A stretch of 44,859 bases of DNA, taken from sequence record PX290280.1; one strand, given 5' to 3'. Positions 1 through 44,859 of the stretch are shown in pieces (position 1 is the stretch's first letter; every line of letters begins with the position of its first letter). Source of the stretch: a phage. Made by a program: the position numbers and the translations under genes. The notes below the pieces were generated by a model. It was not told the DNA's origin and ran no database searches. It saw only the letters and a program-made list of their open reading frames with translations.

Positions 1-49
1 TCTGTTCGTTTCGTTCACTCCGCTTGCGCTACGTTCACTCGCTCACGTG

Positions 50-190
50 TACCTTAGGTTATTCCTTAATGGGTGGCTTAGGTTAGCCTTAGTGGGCTAC
101 CTTAGTTAAAGCCTTAGTGCTTAGCTTAGTATCAGCTTAGTAGTGTACCTTAGTAAGTCTTAGTGTCTTCTCTTAGTGATTGCATAGCTA
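50..190. repeat. Left-end array of short CTTAG(T/G) repeats
   Basis: Many closely spaced copies of ccttag/cttagt read directly in the first 200 nt; typical of T7-group genome termini. Confidence 0.6.
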
Positions 191-340: not shown

Positions 341-374
341 AACCTAGATTTATCTTAGTGATGATAGCTTAGTA

Positions 375-403
375 TTGACAAGGTCGGTTTAGTGTAATAC
401 TAT
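375..403 (+). promoter_or_regulatory. Candidate host sigma70 early promoter
   Basis: TTGACA (375-380), 17-nt spacer, TACTAT (398-403), upstream of the first early ORFs. The -10 is weak. Confidence 0.35.
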
Positions 404-3673: not shown

Positions 3674-6301
3674 ATGCAAGACCTACACGCTATTCAACTT
3701 CAACTTGAAGAAGAAATGTTTAACGGCGGTATCCGTCGCTTTGAAGCGGACCAACAACGCCAGATTGCATCCGGTAATGAATCAGACACGGCATGGAATC
3801 GCCGCTTATTGTCCGAACTAATCGCACCTATGGCGGAAGGTATTCAGGCTTACAAGGAAGAATACGAAGGCAAGAGAGGTCGTGCACCACGTGCATTAGC
3901 TTTCATTAACTGCGTAGGAAACGAAGTGGCAGCATATATCACCATGAAAATCGTTATGGATATGCTGAATACAGACGTTACCTTACAAGCAATCGCTATG
4001 AATGTAGCGGACCGCATCGAAGACCAAGTACGTTTTAGCAAGCTGGAAGGTCACGCAGCTAAGTACTTTGAGAAAGTGAAGAAGTCACTTAAGGCTAGCA
4101 AGACTAAATCTTATCGTCATGCGCACAACGTAGCGGTAGTAGCTGAGAAATCTGTTGCTGACCGTGACGCGGATTTCTCCCGTTGGGAGGCATGGCCTAA
4201 AGACACCTTGCTGCAAATCGGTATGACCTTGCTCGAAATATTGGAGAATAGTGTATTCTTCAATGGTCAACCTGTCTTCCTTCGTACCTTGCGCACTAAC
4301 GGCGGAAAGCATGGTGTTTACTATTTACAGACCAGTGAACATGTTGGAGAGTGGATAACTGCATTTAAGGAACATGTAGCGCAGCTCAGCCCTGCCTATG
4401 CACCTTGCGTTATACCTCCCCGCCCTTGGGTATCACCTTTTAACGGTGGGTTTCATACTGAGAAAGTAGCAAGCCGTATTCGTCTGGTAAAAGGCAATCG
4501 TGAGCACGTCCGCAAGCTGACCAAAAAGCAAATGCCAGCCGTTTATAAGGCTGTTAACGCTTTGCAGGCAACTAAGTGGCAGGTTAATAAAGAGGTTTTA
4601 CAGGTTGTGGAGGACGTTATACGTCTAGACCTCGGCTATGGTGTGCCTTCCTTTAAACCACTCATCGACCGTGAGAACAAGCCAGCTAATCCAGTGCCGT
4701 TAGAGTTCCAGCACCTGCGAGGCCGTGAACTTAAAGAGATGCTAACGCCGGAACAATGGCAAGCCTTCATCAACTGGAAAGGCGAATGTACCAAGCTGTA
4801 TACCGCTGAAACTAAGCGCGGCAGCAAATCGGCGGCGACCGTCCGCATGGTTGGGCAGGCACGTAAATACAGCCAGTTTGACGCCATCTACTTCGTGTAT
4901 GCACTGGACAGCCGCAGCCGCGTCTACGCGCAATCTAGCACGCTCTCTCCGCAATCAAACGACTTAGGCAAGGCATTGCTCCGTTTTACCGAAGGGCAGC
5001 GTCTTGATAGCGCTGAGGCGCTTAAGTGGTTTTTGGTGAACGGGGCTAATAACTGGGGTTGGGATAAGAAAACTTTTGACGTGCGCACCGCTAACGTGCT
5101 GGATAGTGAATTTCAAGACATGTGCCGCGACATTGCAGCGGATCCGCTTACCTTCACTCAATGGGTAAATGCCGACTCCCCTTACGGCTTCCTTGCATGG
5201 TGCTTTGAATATGCGCGTTATCTGGATGCACTGGATGAAGGCACGCAAGACCAATTCATGACGCACCTCCCAGTCCATCAAGATGGTAGTTGCTCTGGTA
5301 TCCAGCACTATAGCGCGATGTTACGCGATGCAGTAGGTGCGAAAGCGGTAAACCTTAAGCCCTCTGACTCCCCTCAAGATATTTATGGTGCCGTTGCGCA
5401 GGTAGTAATTCAGAAGAATTATGCATACATGAATGCAGAGGATGCGGAAACCTTCACTTCTGGCAGCGTGACTTTAACAGGTGCGGAACTGCGTAGCATG
5501 GCTAGTGCGTGGGATATGATAGGAATCACTCGCGGCCTGACCAAAAAGCCCGTAATGACACTACCTTATGGCAGCACACGTCTAACCTGCCGTGAGTCAG
5601 TGATTGATTATATCGTTGATTTAGAAGAAAAAGAGGCCCAACGGGCTATTGCGGAAGGGCGTACCGCCAACCCTGTACATCCTTTTGATAATGACCGTAA
5701 GGACAGCCTGACACCTAGCGCAGCTTATAACTATATGACAGCTTTAATCTGGCCTTCTATTTCGGAAGTGGTTAAAGCTCCTATAGTGGCAATGAAAATG
5801 ATTCGTCAGCTTGCACGTTTCGCAGCTAAAAGAAACGAAGGCTTAGAATATCCCTTACCAACTGGCTTCATCTTGCAACAAAAGATAATGGCTACCGATA
5901 TGCTCCGCGTATCCACTTGCTTGATGGGTGAAATCAAGATGAGTCTCCAGATTGAAACAGATGTAGTTGATGAAACGGCAATGATGGGTGCGGCTGCTCC
6001 TAACTTCGTCCATGGTCACGATGCTAGCCACCTGATTCTGACTGTATGTGACCTAGTGGATAAAGGTATTACATCCATTGCAGTCATCCATGATTCTTTC
6101 GGTACTCATGCAGGACGTACCGCAGACCTGCGGGATAGCTTAAGGGAAGAAATGGTTAAGATGTATCAAAACCATAATGCCCTGCAAAACCTGCTAGATG
6201 TGCACGAAGAGCGTTGGTTAGTAGACACCGGAATCCAAGTACCAGAGCAAGGAGAGTTTGACCTTAACGAAATCTTAGTTTCAGACTATTGTTTCGCATA
6301 A
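3674..6301 (+). CDS. Single-subunit DNA-directed RNA polymerase (SP6-type)
   Basis: 875 aa; N-terminus [32 protein letters not shown] and much of the body match SP6 RNA polymerase as recalled; T7-RNAP-family segments [18 protein letters not shown] and IHDSFGTHA are present. Confidence 0.95.
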
Positions 6302-6768: not shown

Positions 6769-8757
6769 ATGGCTATTATTCAGAATGTACCGTGTCCTGC
6801 CTGTCAAAAGAATGGACATGATATTACTGGCAACCATCTTATGATATTTGAGGATGGCGCTGGTTACTGTAACCGTGGTCACTTCCATGATAACGGCAAG
6901 CCTTATTACCATAAGCCAGAGGGTGGCATCGAGATAACCGAATTACCTATTACTGGCAATATCAAATATACACCTTCTCAGTTTAAAGAGATGGAGAAGG
7001 AAGGGAAGATTAGCGACCCTAAGCTACGCGCCATCGCACTTGGTGGTATGCGTATGAAAGACCGTTGGGAGGTCATGAATGAGCAAGAAAGGGCAGAACA
7101 AGAAGCAGAGTGGAAACTTGATGTTGAATGGTTCCTCACGCTTAAGCGTAAGAACCTTGTATCCCGTCACATTCGAGGTGACATCGCAGCAATGTACGAT
7201 GTGCGCGTTGGACACGATGAAGAGGGAAGAGTCAACCGTCACTATTATCCACGATATGAAAAGGGTGTGCTTGTTGGAGCAAAATGCCGGACGTTGCCGA
7301 AGGATTTTAAGTTCGGACACCTAGGTAAACTCTTTGGTATGCAAGACCTTTTCGGTATGAACACTTTGTCTCACGTGTTAGACAAGGGAAGACGAAAGGA
7401 TTGCTTGCTTATTGTGGGCGGCGAACTGGATGCACTAGCAGCACAGCAGATGCTCCTTGATTCTGCCAAGGGTACTAAGTGGGAAGGCCAGCCTTACCAT
7501 GTATGGTCTGTCAATAAAGGTGAGTCTTGCCTTGAAGAGATAGTGCAGAGCCGTGAGCATATCGCCCAATTCAAGAAGATTATATGGGGTTTTGATGGAG
7601 ATGAGGTGGGGCAGAAGCAGAACCAACAAGCTGCTCGCCTGTTTCCTGGCAAATCCTACATCCTCGAATACCCCTCTGGTTGCAAAGATGCTAACAAGGC
7701 ATTGATGGCTGGCAAGGCTAAAGAATTTGTGGATGCTTGGTTTAATGCAAAGTCATCTGATGAAGTCTTTGGTAGCCAGATTAAATCTATCGCATCTCAA
7801 AGGGATAAGCTCAAGGCTGCACGTCCAGAGCAAGGACTATCATGGCCTTGGCCTAAGCTGAACAAGGTAACGCTGGGTATTCGTAAGAACCAGCTTATCA
7901 TTATAGGTGCAGGCTCTGGTGTAGGTAAGACTGAGTTCCTTCGTGAAGTTGTTAAGCACCTCATTGAAGAACACGGTGAATCTGTAGGCATCATTTCTAC
8001 AGAAGACCCAATGGTCAAGGTGTCCCGTGCTTTTATCGGTAAGTGGATTGATAAGCGTATTGAGTTACCACCAACCAACGACCCGAAAGAAGACGGATAC
8101 CGTGAGGTGTTCGATTACACCGAGGAAGAAGCTAACGCTGCCATTGATTATGTGGCTGATACAGGAAAGCTATTTGTGGCTGACCTAGAAGGCGACTATT
8201 CGATGGAGAAGGTAGAGCAAACTTGCCTAGAGTTTGAGGCTATGGGAATTTCTAATATCATCATTGATAACTTAACGGGGATTAAATTAGATGAGCGTGC
8301 TTTTGGTGGGAAGGTTGGTGCACTTGATGAATGCGTCAAACGAATTGGTACTATCAAAGACCGACATGCGGTTACGATTTTCCTTGTCTCTCACCTTACA
8401 CGTCCTCCGGCAAACCGTACCCAACACGAAGAAGGTGGCGAAGTTATCCTTTCTGACTTCCGAGGCTCAGGCGCTATCGGATTCTGGGCATCTTACGCCT
8501 TGGGGATTGAGCGTAATACAAGAGCTGAAACGCTTGATGAAAGGACTACCACGTACATCTCTTGTGTCAAAGACCGCGACCAAGGTATCTACACAGGAAC
8601 CAAAGTCATGCTCAAGGGTGACATTCAGACCGGACGCTTGAGAGAACCACAAGCTAGAACAAGGTCGTTTGATACAGGCGAAGCAAGGCAACAAGAAGTA
8701 CCGGATTTACCGGACACTATAGAAGAGACAACATTTGACGATGAACAGGAGTTTTAA
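6769..8757 (+). CDS. DNA primase/helicase (T7 gp4-like)
   Basis: N-terminal zinc ribbon CPACQ...CNRGH, DnaB-type Walker A GAGSGVGKTE, and an acidic C-terminal tail ending DDEQEF. Confidence 0.9.
   Translation: MAIIQNVPCPACQKNGHDITGNHLMIFEDGAGYCNRGHFHDNGKPYYHKPEGGIEITELPITGNIKYTPSQFKEMEKEGKISDPKLRAIALGGMRMKDRWEVMNEQERAEQEAEWKLDVEWFLTLKRKNLVSRHIRGDIAAMYDVRVGHDEEGRVNRHYYPRYEKGVLVGAKCRTLPKDFKFGHLGKLFGMQDLFGMNTLSHVLDKGRRKDCLLIVGGELDALAAQQMLLDSAKGTKWEGQPYHVWSVNKGESCLEEIVQSREHIAQFKKIIWGFDGDEVGQKQNQQAARLFPGKSYILEYPSGCKDANKALMAGKAKEFVDAWFNAKSSDEVFGSQIKSIASQRDKLKAARPEQGLSWPWPKLNKVTLGIRKNQLIIIGAGSGVGKTEFLREVVKHLIEEHGESVGIISTEDPMVKVSRAFIGKWIDKRIELPPTNDPKEDGYREVFDYTEEEANAAIDYVADTGKLFVADLEGDYSMEKVEQTCLEFEAMGISNIIIDNLTGIKLDERAFGGKVGALDECVKRIGTIKDRHAVTIFLVSHLTRPPANRTQHEEGGEVILSDFRGSGAIGFWASYALGIERNTRAETLDERTTTYISCVKDRDQGIYTGTKVMLKGDIQTGRLREPQARTRSFDTGEARQQEVPDLPDTIEETTFDDEQEF
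8705..8727 (+). promoter_or_regulatory. Phage RNAP promoter inside the 3' end of the primase/helicase gene
   Basis: ATTTACCGGACACTATAGAAGAG. Confidence 0.7.
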
Positions 8758-8918
8758 TGGAAATTATTAAACCAGTATTGAATATCGGTATTGAAATCCT
8801 ATTCATGCTTGTGATCGCAGATTATGCTGCACGATATGGATTCAAGAAAGCTGTGAAACTTATCGTTGCATCTGGTTTTATGATGTCAATGTTCTTTATT
8901 GTAACACGCCTTATCTAG
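8757..8918 (+). CDS. Small membrane protein (53 aa, two predicted transmembrane segments)
   Basis: ATG overlaps the primase stop (TAATG); hydrophobic sequence. Confidence 0.45.
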   Translation: MEIIKPVLNIGIEILFMLVIADYAARYGFKKAVKLIVASGFMMSMFFIVTRLI

Positions 8919-40226: not shown

Positions 40227-40249
40227 ATTTACTGGACACTATAGAAGGA
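40227..40249 (+). promoter_or_regulatory. Phage RNAP promoter upstream of the tailspike genes
   Basis: ATTTACTGGACACTATAGAAGGA. Confidence 0.8.
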
Positions 40250-41850: not shown

Positions 41851-44286
41851 ATGATTCAAAGACTAGGTTCTTCATTAGTTAAATTCAAGAGTAAAATAGC
41901 AGGTGCAATCTGGCGTAACTTGGATGACAAGCTCACCGAGGTTGTATCGCTTAAAGATTTTGGAGCCAAAGGTGATGGTAAGACAAACGACCAAGATGCA
42001 GTAAATGCAGCGATGGCTTCAGGTAAGAGAATTGACGGTGCTGGTGCTACTTACAAAGTATCATCTTTACCTGATATGGAGCGATTCTATAACACCCGCT
42101 TCGTATGGGAACGTTTAGCAGGTCAACCTCTTTACTATGTGAGTAAAGGTTTTATCAATGGTGAACTCTATAAAATCACGGACAACCCTTATTACAATGC
42201 TTGGCCTCAAGACAAGGCGTTTGTATATGAGAATGTGATATATGCACCCTACATGGGTAGCGACCGTCATGGTGTTAGTCGTCTGCATGTATCATGGGTT
42301 AAGTCTGGTGACGATGGTCAAACATGGTCTACTCCAGAGTGGTTAACTGATCTGCATCCAGATTACCCTACAGTGAACTATCATTGTATGAGTATGGGTG
42401 TATGTCGCAACCGTCTGTTTGCCATGATTGAAACACGTACTTTAGCCAAGAACGAACTAACCAATTGTGCATTGTGGGATCGTCCTATGTCTCGTAGTCT
42501 GCACCTTACTGGTGGTATCACTAAAGCTGCAAATCAGAGATATGCAACAATCCATGTACCTGATCACGGACTATTCGTGGGCGATTTTGTTAACTTCTCT
42601 AATTCTGCGGTAACAGGTGTATCAGGTGATATGACTGTTGCAACGGTAATAGATAAGGACAACTTCACGGTCCTTACACCTAACCAGCAGACTTCAGATT
42701 TGAATAACGCTGGAAAGAGTTGGCACATGGGTACTTCTTTCCATAAGTCTCCATGGCGTAAGACAGATCTTGGTCTAATCCCTAGTGTCACAGAGGTGCA
42801 TAGCTTTGCTACTATTGATAACAATGGCTTTGTTATGGGCTATCATCAAGGTGATGTAGCTCCACGAGAAGTTGGTCTTTTCTACTTCCCTGATGCTTTC
42901 AATAGCCCATCTAATTATGTTCGTCGTCAGATACCATCTGAGTATGAACCAGATGCGTCAGAGCCATGCATCAAGTACTATGACGGTGTATTATACCTTA
43001 TCACTCGTGGCACTCGTGGTGACAGACTTGGAAGCTCTTTGCATCGTAGTAGAGATATAGGTCAGACTTGGGAGTCACTGAGATTTCCACATAATGTTCA
43101 TCATACTACCTTACCTTTTGCTAAAGTAGGAGATGACCTTATTATGTTTGGTTCAGAACGTGCAGAAAATGAATGGGAAGCAGGTGCACCAGATGATCGT
43201 TACAAGGCATCTTATCCTCGTACCTTCTATGCACGATTGAATGTAAACAATTGGAATGCAGATGATATTGAATGGGTTAACATCACAGACCAAATCTATC
43301 AAGGTGACATTGTGAACTCTAGTGTAGGTGTAGGTTCTGTTGTAGTTAAAGACAGCTACATTTACTATATCTTTGGTGGTGAAAACCATTTCAACCCAAT
43401 GACTTATGGTGACAACAAAGATAAAGACCCATTTAAAGGTCATGGACACCCTACTGATATATACTGCTATAAGATGCAGATTGCAAATGACAATCGTGTA
43501 TCTCGTAAGTTTACATATGGTGCAACTCCTGGTCAAGCTATACCTACTTTCATGGGTACTGATGGGATACGAAATATCCCTGCACCTTTGTATTTCTCAG
43601 ATAACATTGTTACAGAGGATACTAAAGTTGGACACTTAACAATTAAAGCAAGCACAAGTTCCAATATACGATCTGAAGCGCAGATGGAAGGTGAATATGG
43701 CTTTATTGGCAAGTCTGTTCCAAAGGATAACCCAACTGGTCAACGTTTGATTATTTGTGGTGGAGAAGCGACTTCGTCCTCTTCAGGTGCACAGATAACT
43801 TTGCACGGCTCTAATTCAAGTAATGCTAATCGTATCACTTATAACGGAAATGAGCACCTATTCCAAGGTGCACCAATCATGCCTGCTGTAGATAACCAGT
43901 TTGCTGCTGGTGGACCTAGTAACCGATTCACTACCATATACCTAGGTAGTGACCCTGTTACCACTTCAGATGCTGAACACAAGTACGGTATCTCTAGTAT
44001 TAATACCAAGGTGTTAAAGGCTTGGAGTAGAGTTGGTTTTAAACAGTATGGTTTGAATAGTGAAGCAGAGAGAAGTCTTGATAGCATACACTTCGGTGTC
44101 TTGGCTCAGGATATTGTAGCTGCTTTTGAAGCTGAAGGGTTAGATGCCATTAAGTATGGAATTATGTCATTCGAAGAAGGTAGGTACGGTGTGAGGTATA
44201 GTGAAGTTCTAATCCTAGAGGCTGCCTACACTCGCCATCGTCTTGATAAATTAGAGGAGATGTATGCCGCTAATAAAATCAGTTAA
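41851..44286 (+). CDS. Tailspike 2: endosialidase-like, with a C-terminal intramolecular chaperone domain
   Basis: 811 aa; two sialidase Asp-boxes SGDDGQTW and SRDIGQTW; C-terminal about 105 aa with an S-D junction typical of self-cleaving chaperone domains. Confidence 0.75.
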   Translation: MIQRLGSSLVKFKSKIAGAIWRNLDDKLTEVVSLKDFGAKGDGKTNDQDAVNAAMASGKRIDGAGATYKVSSLPDMERFYNTRFVWERLAGQPLYYVSKGFINGELYKITDNPYYNAWPQDKAFVYENVIYAPYMGSDRHGVSRLHVSWVKSGDDGQTWSTPEWLTDLHPDYPTVNYHCMSMGVCRNRLFAMIETRTLAKNELTNCALWDRPMSRSLHLTGGITKAANQRYATIHVPDHGLFVGDFVNFSNSAVTGVSGDMTVATVIDKDNFTVLTPNQQTSDLNNAGKSWHMGTSFHKSPWRKTDLGLIPSVTEVHSFATIDNNGFVMGYHQGDVAPREVGLFYFPDAFNSPSNYVRRQIPSEYEPDASEPCIKYYDGVLYLITRGTRGDRLGSSLHRSRDIGQTWESLRFPHNVHHTTLPFAKVGDDLIMFGSERAENEWEAGAPDDRYKASYPRTFYARLNVNNWNADDIEWVNITDQIYQGDIVNSSVGVGSVVVKDSYIYYIFGGENHFNPMTYGDNKDKDPFKGHGHPTDIYCYKMQIANDNRVSRKFTYGATPGQAIPTFMGTDGIRNIPAPLYFSDNIVTEDTKVGHLTIKASTSSNIRSEAQMEGEYGFIGKSVPKDNPTGQRLIICGGEATSSSSGAQITLHGSNSSNANRITYNGNEHLFQGAPIMPAVDNQFAAGGPSNRFTTIYLGSDPVTTSDAEHKYGISSINTKVLKAWSRVGFKQYGLNSEAERSLDSIHFGVLAQDIVAAFEAEGLDAIKYGIMSFEEGRYGVRYSEVLILEAAYTRHRLDKLEEMYAANKIS

Positions 44287-44413
44287 GCAAGCTGCTGTAC
44301 GCCAGAACGCAGAAGAACTTATTCAATCAGGACGTGACCCTAAGCAGGCATACGCCATTGCCAAGGATGTACAACGTCGTGCCTTGAAGAAACCTTCTGC
44401 ATCTTCTGCTTAA
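44264..44413 (+). CDS. Small basic protein at the right end (50 aa)
   Basis: GAGGAG ribosome-binding site 4 nt upstream; overlaps the tailspike stop. Confidence 0.4.
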   Translation: MPLIKSVKQAAVRQNAEELIQSGRDPKQAYAIAKDVQRRALKKPSASSA

Positions 44414-44419
44414 GCAGGT

Positions 44420-44859
44420 TAATATCTTAGTGTACACAAGGGCAGACCTAGGTTTGCTCTTAGTGTAATCCAAGGAGGTAACATGCAAGAGGGGAATTGG
44501 GATGTGTAATGTTGGATATGGAGAAGGTTGAACCTTAGTGTTGTACAAGGATTAACCAAAGTCAAAATTTTGATATAGGCGTGTGTGAGGTGTCTCGCCC
44601 TCGCCCTCGCCGGATTTCCCCCATATGGGGCCGCGCTGCGGTTGGCTTGGGAATTGGGCTAGGCTGGTCCGTCTTCGACGGGTGGCCTAGGGCTTGCCGA
44701 AGTCTGCTCTTAGTGGCTGCACAAGGAGAACGCCTAGGAAGCGCTAGGGCACGCCTTAGTATTGGACAAGGTGATTGCCTTAGCGCAACCGCTTAGGGCT
44801 TACACAGGCCGTTTTAGGGCCATTCCTGAGCATTTGACAGGGTGAGCGTGGGTGGGCTA
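44420..44859. repeat. Right-end repeat region, GC-rich, probably part of the terminal repeat
   Basis: Reiterated CTTAGTG-N(6-9)-CAAGG units; 44438-44454 is identical to 6549-6565; GC content clearly above the genome average. Confidence 0.55.

Follow-up and report, generated by a model that had tools for sequence, protein, structure and literature searches.

The DNA analysed here, a 44,859-nt stretch recorded as PX290280.1 (the window, below), is on sequence grounds a unit-length Vectrevirus genome (K1E/K1-5/SP6-like; Autographiviridae, Molineuxvirinae) in which only the right copy of the direct terminal repeat (DTR) is written. The DTR is placed at 44593(±2)-44859 on the + strand (267 bp, 60% GC) by homology to the DTRs of relatives. 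The end of the window joined to its start reproduces the concatemer junction of replicating DNA, with short same-strand repeats before, inside and after the DTR. The explanation as a whole, comprising the placement of the DTR, the T7-type junction and the proposed role of the repeats, is held at a probability of about 0.8. Taken together and on their own, the identification and the boundaries of the DTR and junction are very probably correct. With the left DTR copy missing from PX290280.1, the virion genome would be ~45,126 bp long (44,859 + 267).

Both ends of the window match K1E/K1-5-like coliphages at 90-99% identity. Over the right 560 nt, identity reaches 98.6% with PhiNW-E1 and 90% with K1E; over the left 540 nt, it is ~93% with many Vectrevirus genomes. 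The collection searched with both ends held no record identical to the window. The K1E matches carry annotations for RNA polymerase, DNA polymerase and primase/helicase. As expected of T7-supergroup phages, the genome has a single-subunit RNA polymerase, promoters of its own and all genes on one strand. Eight SP6-type promoters were found in the window, all on the + strand and the last at 40227, which indicates that late transcription runs into the junction. Neither an Rfam family nor a tRNA was detected in the window. In circularly permuted assemblies, the sequence of the window end continues directly into that of the window start, for example from 8757 to 8758 of OZ035807.1.

Self-comparison of the window ends revealed no shared repeat and no second DTR copy, as a preliminary description of this DNA had stated; the DTR is therefore not definable from the window alone. 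Exact DTRs were computed in the relatives deposited with both copies, namely K1E (288 bp), K1-5 (234 bp), mutPK1A2 (286 bp, where the repeat is also annotated), SP6 (174 bp), phD2B (262 bp) and Klebsiella phage vB_Kp_H01 (KpH01, PP836962.1; 218 bp). The terminal repeat annotated in Mt1B1_P10 is 267 bp long. In all six computed relatives, the right end of the DTR reads ...G(G/C)(C/G)TA and is followed by TCTGT; in K1E, K1-5, mutPK1A2 and SP6, the DTR closes with ...GGGCTA and the next bases are TCTGTTC. The window closes with ...GGGTGGGCTA and opens with TCTGTTCG, which identifies base 1 as the first unique base past the left DTR. At the other boundary, the DTRs of Vectrevirus and SP6 start with (T)CTCG(C/G)CC, as in the window. 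Those of Vectrevirus open with (T)CTCGCCCTCGCCCTCGCCGG, and the same string is located at 44593. Over its full length, the interval 44593-44859 can be aligned to the DTRs of K1E, mutPK1A2 and Mt1B1_P10, with identical boundary strings. Base 287 of mutPK1A2, which lies just past its 286-bp repeat, aligns to base 1 of the window, and the first 45 nt of the window are homologous to unique sequence that follows the DTR in relatives. By homology, base 44859 would be the right physical end and base 1 the first base after the left DTR; for the window itself, which has one DTR copy, we infer the ends and the repeat length from the relatives. This alignment of the window ends to relatives with both DTR copies agrees with the earlier proposal of a terminal-repeat or concatemer-junction region. 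Fixed boundaries and exact short repeats are shared by independent relatives, a pattern other than that of headful (pac) packaging with circular permutation.

The GC content is 0.63 at 44575-44724 and 0.60 over 44593-44859, compared with 0.447 in the whole window, consistent with the GC-rich right end described previously. The GC-rich tract opens with (CTCGCC)x3 at 44594-44611 (Tandem Repeats Finder), and the palindrome CCCCATATGGGG is located at 44619-44630. In the nine-junction alignment, the interior of the DTR varies by insertions and deletions; two bipartite repeat units (D and E), the further CTTAG copies at 44779 and 44792 on the + strand and an invariant TTGACA at 44834-44839 are kept. 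A 71-aa GTG-start ORF at 44581-44796 (+), which is annotated as gp48 in K1E, was considered as a gene and rejected because the relatives carry gaps of 22 and 26 alignment columns, neither of which is a multiple of three. The ORF annotated inside the repeat in some relatives, such as gp48 of K1E, is probably not a gene, which matters for annotation.

The junction was aligned over nine junctions, and two more distant genera were added separately. Its parts follow one order: gene 48, a hairpin with repeat units A and B, a variable stretch of small ORFs, unit C with a conserved pre-DTR block, the DTR, the boundary GCTA|TCTGTT, ~45 variable nt, the CTTAG array, two hairpins and an early sigma70-type promoter. 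The last conserved gene ahead of the junction region is a 49-aa ORF at 44264..44413 (+), the counterpart of K1-5 gene 48 and SP6 gp51. A mini-ORF of 8 codons at 44483..44509 (+) is located behind a strong AAGGAGGT ribosome-binding site; it is the remnant of a variable small gene (K1-5 gene 49, SP6 gp52), and the stretch around it varies in the alignment and carries annotated small genes in relatives. The pre-DTR block at 44545..44592 (+; ACAAGGATTAACCAAAGTCAAAATTTTGATATAGGCGTGTGTGAGGTG) contains the 12-bp palindrome TCAAAATTTTGA at 44562-44573. This block of ~50 nt is nearly invariant across Vectrevirus, Zindervirus, Acadevirus, Tuodvirus and the Klebsiella phages and is retained in the most distant BLAST matches. 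It is likely a signal for making the left genome end. As free single strands, the palindromes CCCCATATGGGG and TCAAAATTTTGA fold no better than shuffled sequence.

The right DTR boundary carries a candidate pause signal. Bases 1..6 of the window (+ strand) read TCTGTT and form, with A44859, the heptamer ATCTGTT, the class II pause/termination signal of T7-type RNA polymerases. The heptamer lies exactly on the boundary, across the window end and start, and is preceded by T; the window sequence across the candidate site is TATCTGTTC. In the circularised window, ATCTGTT occurs on the + strand only at 4150 and 44859, and GCTATCTGTT is invariant in 9/9 aligned junctions. The formation of the signal from A44859 and bases 1-6 marks the window boundary as a junction independently of the DTR alignment. 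A class II signal has been described at the T7 concatemer junction, the right end of which is the one natural ATCTGTT site of T7 RNA polymerase (bioRxiv 10.1101/2021.01.11.426313; 10.64898/2026.02.12.705533).

The short repeats take two forms. Six copies of the bipartite pattern CTTAGTR-N3-7-CAAGG are present in the window, exclusively on the + strand (44426, 44459, 44534, 44709, 44755 and 368); shuffled sequence gave 0.12 copies on average and never more than 1. Five of these units lie at the right end (44426-44771), four with CTTAGTG and one with CTTAGTA, in agreement with the at least five units reported earlier for the last ~440 nt. Units A (44426-44441) and B (44459-44475) follow gene 48. 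Unit C (44534..44550; CTTAGTGTTGTACAAGG) runs with its right half into the pre-DTR block; most Vectrevirus genomes have this unit, but in K1-5, SP6 and PM93 its place is taken by ..TCACAAAG... Units D (44709-44726) and E (44755-44771) lie inside the DTR, and unit F (368-383; CTTAGTATTGACAAGG) extends over the -35 box of the early promoter. The six units fall into more than one class: A and B flank a hairpin and F overlaps a promoter.

The second form is the array after the DTR, at 53..177 on the + strand, where the preliminary description had placed a separate CTTAG array in the first 200 nt. It comprises 11 CTTAG copies, eight of which are CTTAGT, starting at 53, 77, 88, 101, 113, 120, 125, 136, 149, 159 and 172 with a median spacing of 11.5 nt. 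Tandem Repeats Finder reports it at 49-165 with a period of 24, which equals two ~12-nt units. Over the whole window, CTTAGT is observed 55 times against 30.4 expected. The two ends account for the excess, with 13 copies in 1-500 and five in the last 440 nt, exclusively on the + strand; of the 37 copies elsewhere, 16 are on the + strand and 21 on the - strand.

The array has kept its period while the motif changes between genera. The spacing of 11-13 nt is retained in K1E, K1-5, SP6, PM93 and phD2B. The 7-mer is CTTAGT(G) in Vectrevirus, Zindervirus and Acadevirus, CATGATG in the Tuodvirus phD2B and CATAGTG in KpH01, where the motif pattern was picked by eye. The different 7-mers occupy the same positions, and within the subfamily the blocks at the cut sites and ATCTGTT are unchanged. 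Within the array, the CTTAG columns are 92% conserved compared with 75% for the spacers across six divergent relatives (Mann-Whitney p = 3e-7, indicative only, as columns and taxa are non-independent); in and before the DTR, the motif columns are 76-77% conserved compared with 63-65% for the spacers. The better conservation of the motif columns could partly reflect homogenisation of the repeats instead of selection for binding.

A change of the 7-mer at fixed positions next to constant cut-site blocks suggests that the short same-strand repeats are binding sites for a phage protein, although this pattern does not in itself name the protein. Their position in a T7-like layout, one-strand polarity and constant period point in the same direction. 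The earlier proposal that the repeats are candidates for terminase recognition and junction processing is thus plausible, though it does not suit every unit. With the terminase as prime candidate, this assignment stands at slightly less than even odds. Against a uniform binding role, the hairpin persists where unit B has lost CTTAGTG, units A and B lie internally in another phage (St11Ph5, below), and unit F sits on a -35 box. More tentative, and rather doubtful, is the idea that the short repeats form a packaging-specificity code that coevolves with a phage protein; if it is true, swaps of arrays between genera would make the function of T7-type flanking repeats testable.

Among the alternatives, the one that survives best explains the CTTAGTG-N-CAAGG units as halves of hairpins, which would be 3'-end, processing or pause structures of transcripts or cruciforms in DNA instead of protein-binding repeats. 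A palindrome search located a conserved 10-bp hairpin, AAGGGCAGACC-TAG-GTTTGCTCTT, at 44438-44461 (+), flanked and overlapped by units A and B; in the stem, base pairs form between the CAAGG of unit A and the CTCTT(A)G of unit B. RNA folding of 44410-44500 yields -28.9 kcal/mol (z = -3.8). Nine taxa retain the consensus hairpin; two of its pairs show compensatory changes, and several others switch between GU and GC. It is kept in K44PH129C1, where the CTTAGTG of unit B is lost, and in phD2B, which has another motif. In LI10P3, the stem and its T-rich tail score as terminator-like. For the A/B region, at least, the hairpin reading is true. However, single units fold no better than shuffles (z +0.87 to -1.6), units C, D and E have no partner stem, and the 11 simple CTTAG copies after the DTR lack a CAAGG half. 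In SP6, CAAAGG replaces CAAGG in all bipartite units with no matching change in CTTAGTG, which does not fit pairing within the unit. As an account of the units in general, hairpin halves are unlikely.

The region of units A and B also occurs outside the group. Gene 48 and the two units are found inside the N4-like Escherichia phage St11Ph5 (MG208881.1), where 59 nt match window positions 44401-44460 at 93% identity. There they are internal, between two tail-fibre genes and away from the genome end (1364-1640 of the compared stretch), and the loop of the hairpin carries a 65-nt insertion. Their presence with gene 48 inside St11Ph5 indicates that units A and B travel with the tailspike module; they may act at the RNA level. 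The occurrence of gene 48 and the units there points to an exchange of tailspike plus flank between unrelated podovirus families. An insert of ~65 nt (..TCACAGCACACCTAYGAGTGCCGCTCTGGA..) is common to the hairpin loops of St11Ph5 (1551-1615) and Salmonella phage PST_H2 (~552-616), both numbered in the compared stretches. A stretch before the DTR of KpH01 (~383-420 of the compared stretch) is related to it, and the insert is absent from the window. The ~65-nt loop insert may be a small mobile or recombination-prone element.

A role of the arrays in replication or genome entry (priming or an origin near the ends, DTR duplication, or regulation of the DNA that enters the cell first) in place of packaging appears somewhat less likely again. 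This alternative draws on the location of the array within the first 200 nt that enter the host, beside two hairpins with full-stem covariation. Past the CTTAG array and ahead of the early promoter, these hairpins read TTGC-ATAGCT-AA-AGCTAT..GCAA at ~178-205 and GCGGTC-GGTA-GACCGC at ~213-230. In other genera, compensating sequences take the place of the entire stems (ACATGC/GCATGT, ACAAGC/GCTTGT, GCTTGC/GCAAGC and GCTCAC/GTGAGC), with double changes in 6/11 consensus pairs. The hairpin element at 178-265 matches no Rfam family; a duplicated ATAAGATGCA (196-205 and 248-257) follows the hairpins. The DTR of KpH01 is also relevant, since its repeated perfect TGTGGATAA copies show that replication-type sites can sit here. 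T7 has its promoters phiOL and phiOR flanking the ends, and secondary origins of T7 are associated with both. Conversely, the array of the window holds neither DnaA boxes nor AT-rich unwinding tracts, and arrays in one orientation on both sides of and inside the DTR better fit a recognition complex that spans the junction. For T3 and T7, packaging specificity has been traced to gp19 and to sequence no further than 5% from the termini (PMC3276506).

The DTR of KpH01 contains four perfect and two near-perfect copies of TGTGGATAA, and the DTR of the window contains none. TGTGGATAA is the reverse complement of the DnaA-box consensus TTATCCACA. The host initiator may be recruited at the ends of this phage.

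It is far less probable that the units are host sigma70 promoter elements (CTTAGTaTTGACAagg, an upstream element with a -35 box) repeated to capture the host RNA polymerase. The promoter scan identified an early sigma70-type promoter at 375-403 (+; TTGACA-17-TACTAT, 10/12), which is also present in LI10P3. Unit F, at 368, contains the TTGACA of its -35 box, and the genus 7-mer of SP6 and KpH01 abuts the TTGACA of the early promoter. A spacing of 18 nt separates the invariant TTGACA at 44834-44839 from TATCTG at the DTR boundary, and the junction signal of T7 shows promoter activity in E. coli constructs through a TGnTA motif (10.64898/2026.02.12.705533). However, this motif is absent from the window. 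The scan found no sigma70 promoter in 44200-44859 and none across the contiguous junction of LI10P3, where the consensus scan also placed no promoter at the DTR boundary; a promoter reading of units A-E was rejected on these blank scans. In place of TTGACA, units A-E carry TACACA, TCCAAG, GTACAA, GCACAA and GGACAA, with no -10 at the right distance. SP6-type phage promoters were likewise not found in the junction region. Paired with the rightward early promoter in divergent orientation is a leftward sigma70-like promoter (TTGTCA-18-TAAGAT) at 352-381 (-), also conserved in LI10P3. Reminiscent of the leftward A0 annotated in T7, it would drive transcription through the hairpins and the CTTAG array in the direction of the genome end.

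The notion that the window starts inside the terminal repeat, which the preliminary description had entertained in writing that the repeat was present once or split across the ends, accounts for ends without shared duplication and for CTTAG-type repeats at both of them but is barely credible, given that the six relatives with both copies end their repeat at the window end and continue with the window's first bases, which are homologous to unique sequence; the repeat is present once, complete at 44593-44859, and is not split.

T7 packages its DNA leftwards. A packaging mechanism modelled as a whole on T7/T3 biology would proceed as follows in the window. The phage RNA polymerase would start from the last late promoter (40227), read through the tailspike genes and pause at ATCTGTT, where the terminase would be recruited and cut the right DTR boundary. 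With packaging leftwards, the DTR and the bipartite units would enter the capsid first, in a position like that of cosB. One genome later, the motor would pass the CTTAG array, meet the next DTR and cut at |TCTCGCC, and the DTR would be duplicated by repair synthesis. The same-strand repeats would serve as multiple protein-binding sites that give the junction its specificity and polarity. In T7, the complex of polymerase and lysozyme is reported to pause at ATCTGTT and to interact with gp18 and gp19, upon which maturation starts. Each junction of the concatemer holds one copy of the DTR, and the second copy is synthesised (PMC10438801).

The element is already known in kind: it is orthologous to the published and annotated terminal repeats of K1E, K1-5 and SP6 and is built like the T7 junction. 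The repeats of SP6 (NC_004831), K1-5 (AY370674) and K1E (AM084415) share with the window the boundaries, the pre-DTR block, the CTTAG array and the hairpins. The DTR length differs by internal insertions and deletions (174 bp in SP6, 234 bp in K1-5, 288 bp in K1E and 267 bp in the window). Unit C is present in the window but absent in K1-5 and SP6, and the record holds one DTR copy whereas theirs hold two.

Compared with the cos region of lambda (cosQ-cosN-cosB, with its R sites) and pacL/pacR of SPP1, the likeness is a functional analogy only, which consists in short repeats beside terminase cut sites. By this analogy, the bipartite units and the DTR of the window would be packaged first, like cosB of lambda, and the CTTAG array would be met last, like cosQ. 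In contrast to both systems, the window has ends of the blunt type with exact direct repeats, neither cohesive nor headful, and no sequence similarity to them. The repeats of lambda and SPP1 are binding sites of the small terminase, whereas T3/T7 specificity is assigned to the large subunit gp19 (PMC3276506).

The closest structural parallel is T7. The ends of T7 comprise a 160-bp repeat, ...CCCT|ATCTGTT directly after it, and a one-strand CCTAAAG array with 13-nt spacing; the 7-mer recurs within the repeat and ahead of it, and the palindrome CCCCCATAGGGGG is located near the repeat start. The T7 arrays are called SRR and SRL in the literature and, to our knowledge, their function has never been established. 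The window provides a clean example of a T7-type junction in the SP6 group, and its fixed cut sites with a shifting 7-mer offer a handle on the function of flanking repeats. One-strand short-repeat arrays flank the DTR of the window, as at junctions of the T7 supergroup, and the array at 53..177 corresponds in position to the CCTAAAG array of T7. The parts follow the same order in both: few motif copies before the repeat and copies within it, a C-rich/G-rich palindrome near its start (CCCCCATAGGGGG in T7, CCCCATATGGGG in the window), ATCTGTT at the right boundary, a one-strand 7-mer array with 12-13 nt spacing, and then early host promoters. Apart from ATCTGTT and the palindrome, no sequence homology is detectable. 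The motif is CTTAGT(G) in the window and CCTAAAG in T7, and the repeat measures 267 bp with 60% GC compared with 160 bp. The units left of and inside the repeat are bipartite in the window, with ACAAGG added, unlike those of T7. The cut in the window would fall one base inside ATCTGTT, whereas that in T7 falls just before it.
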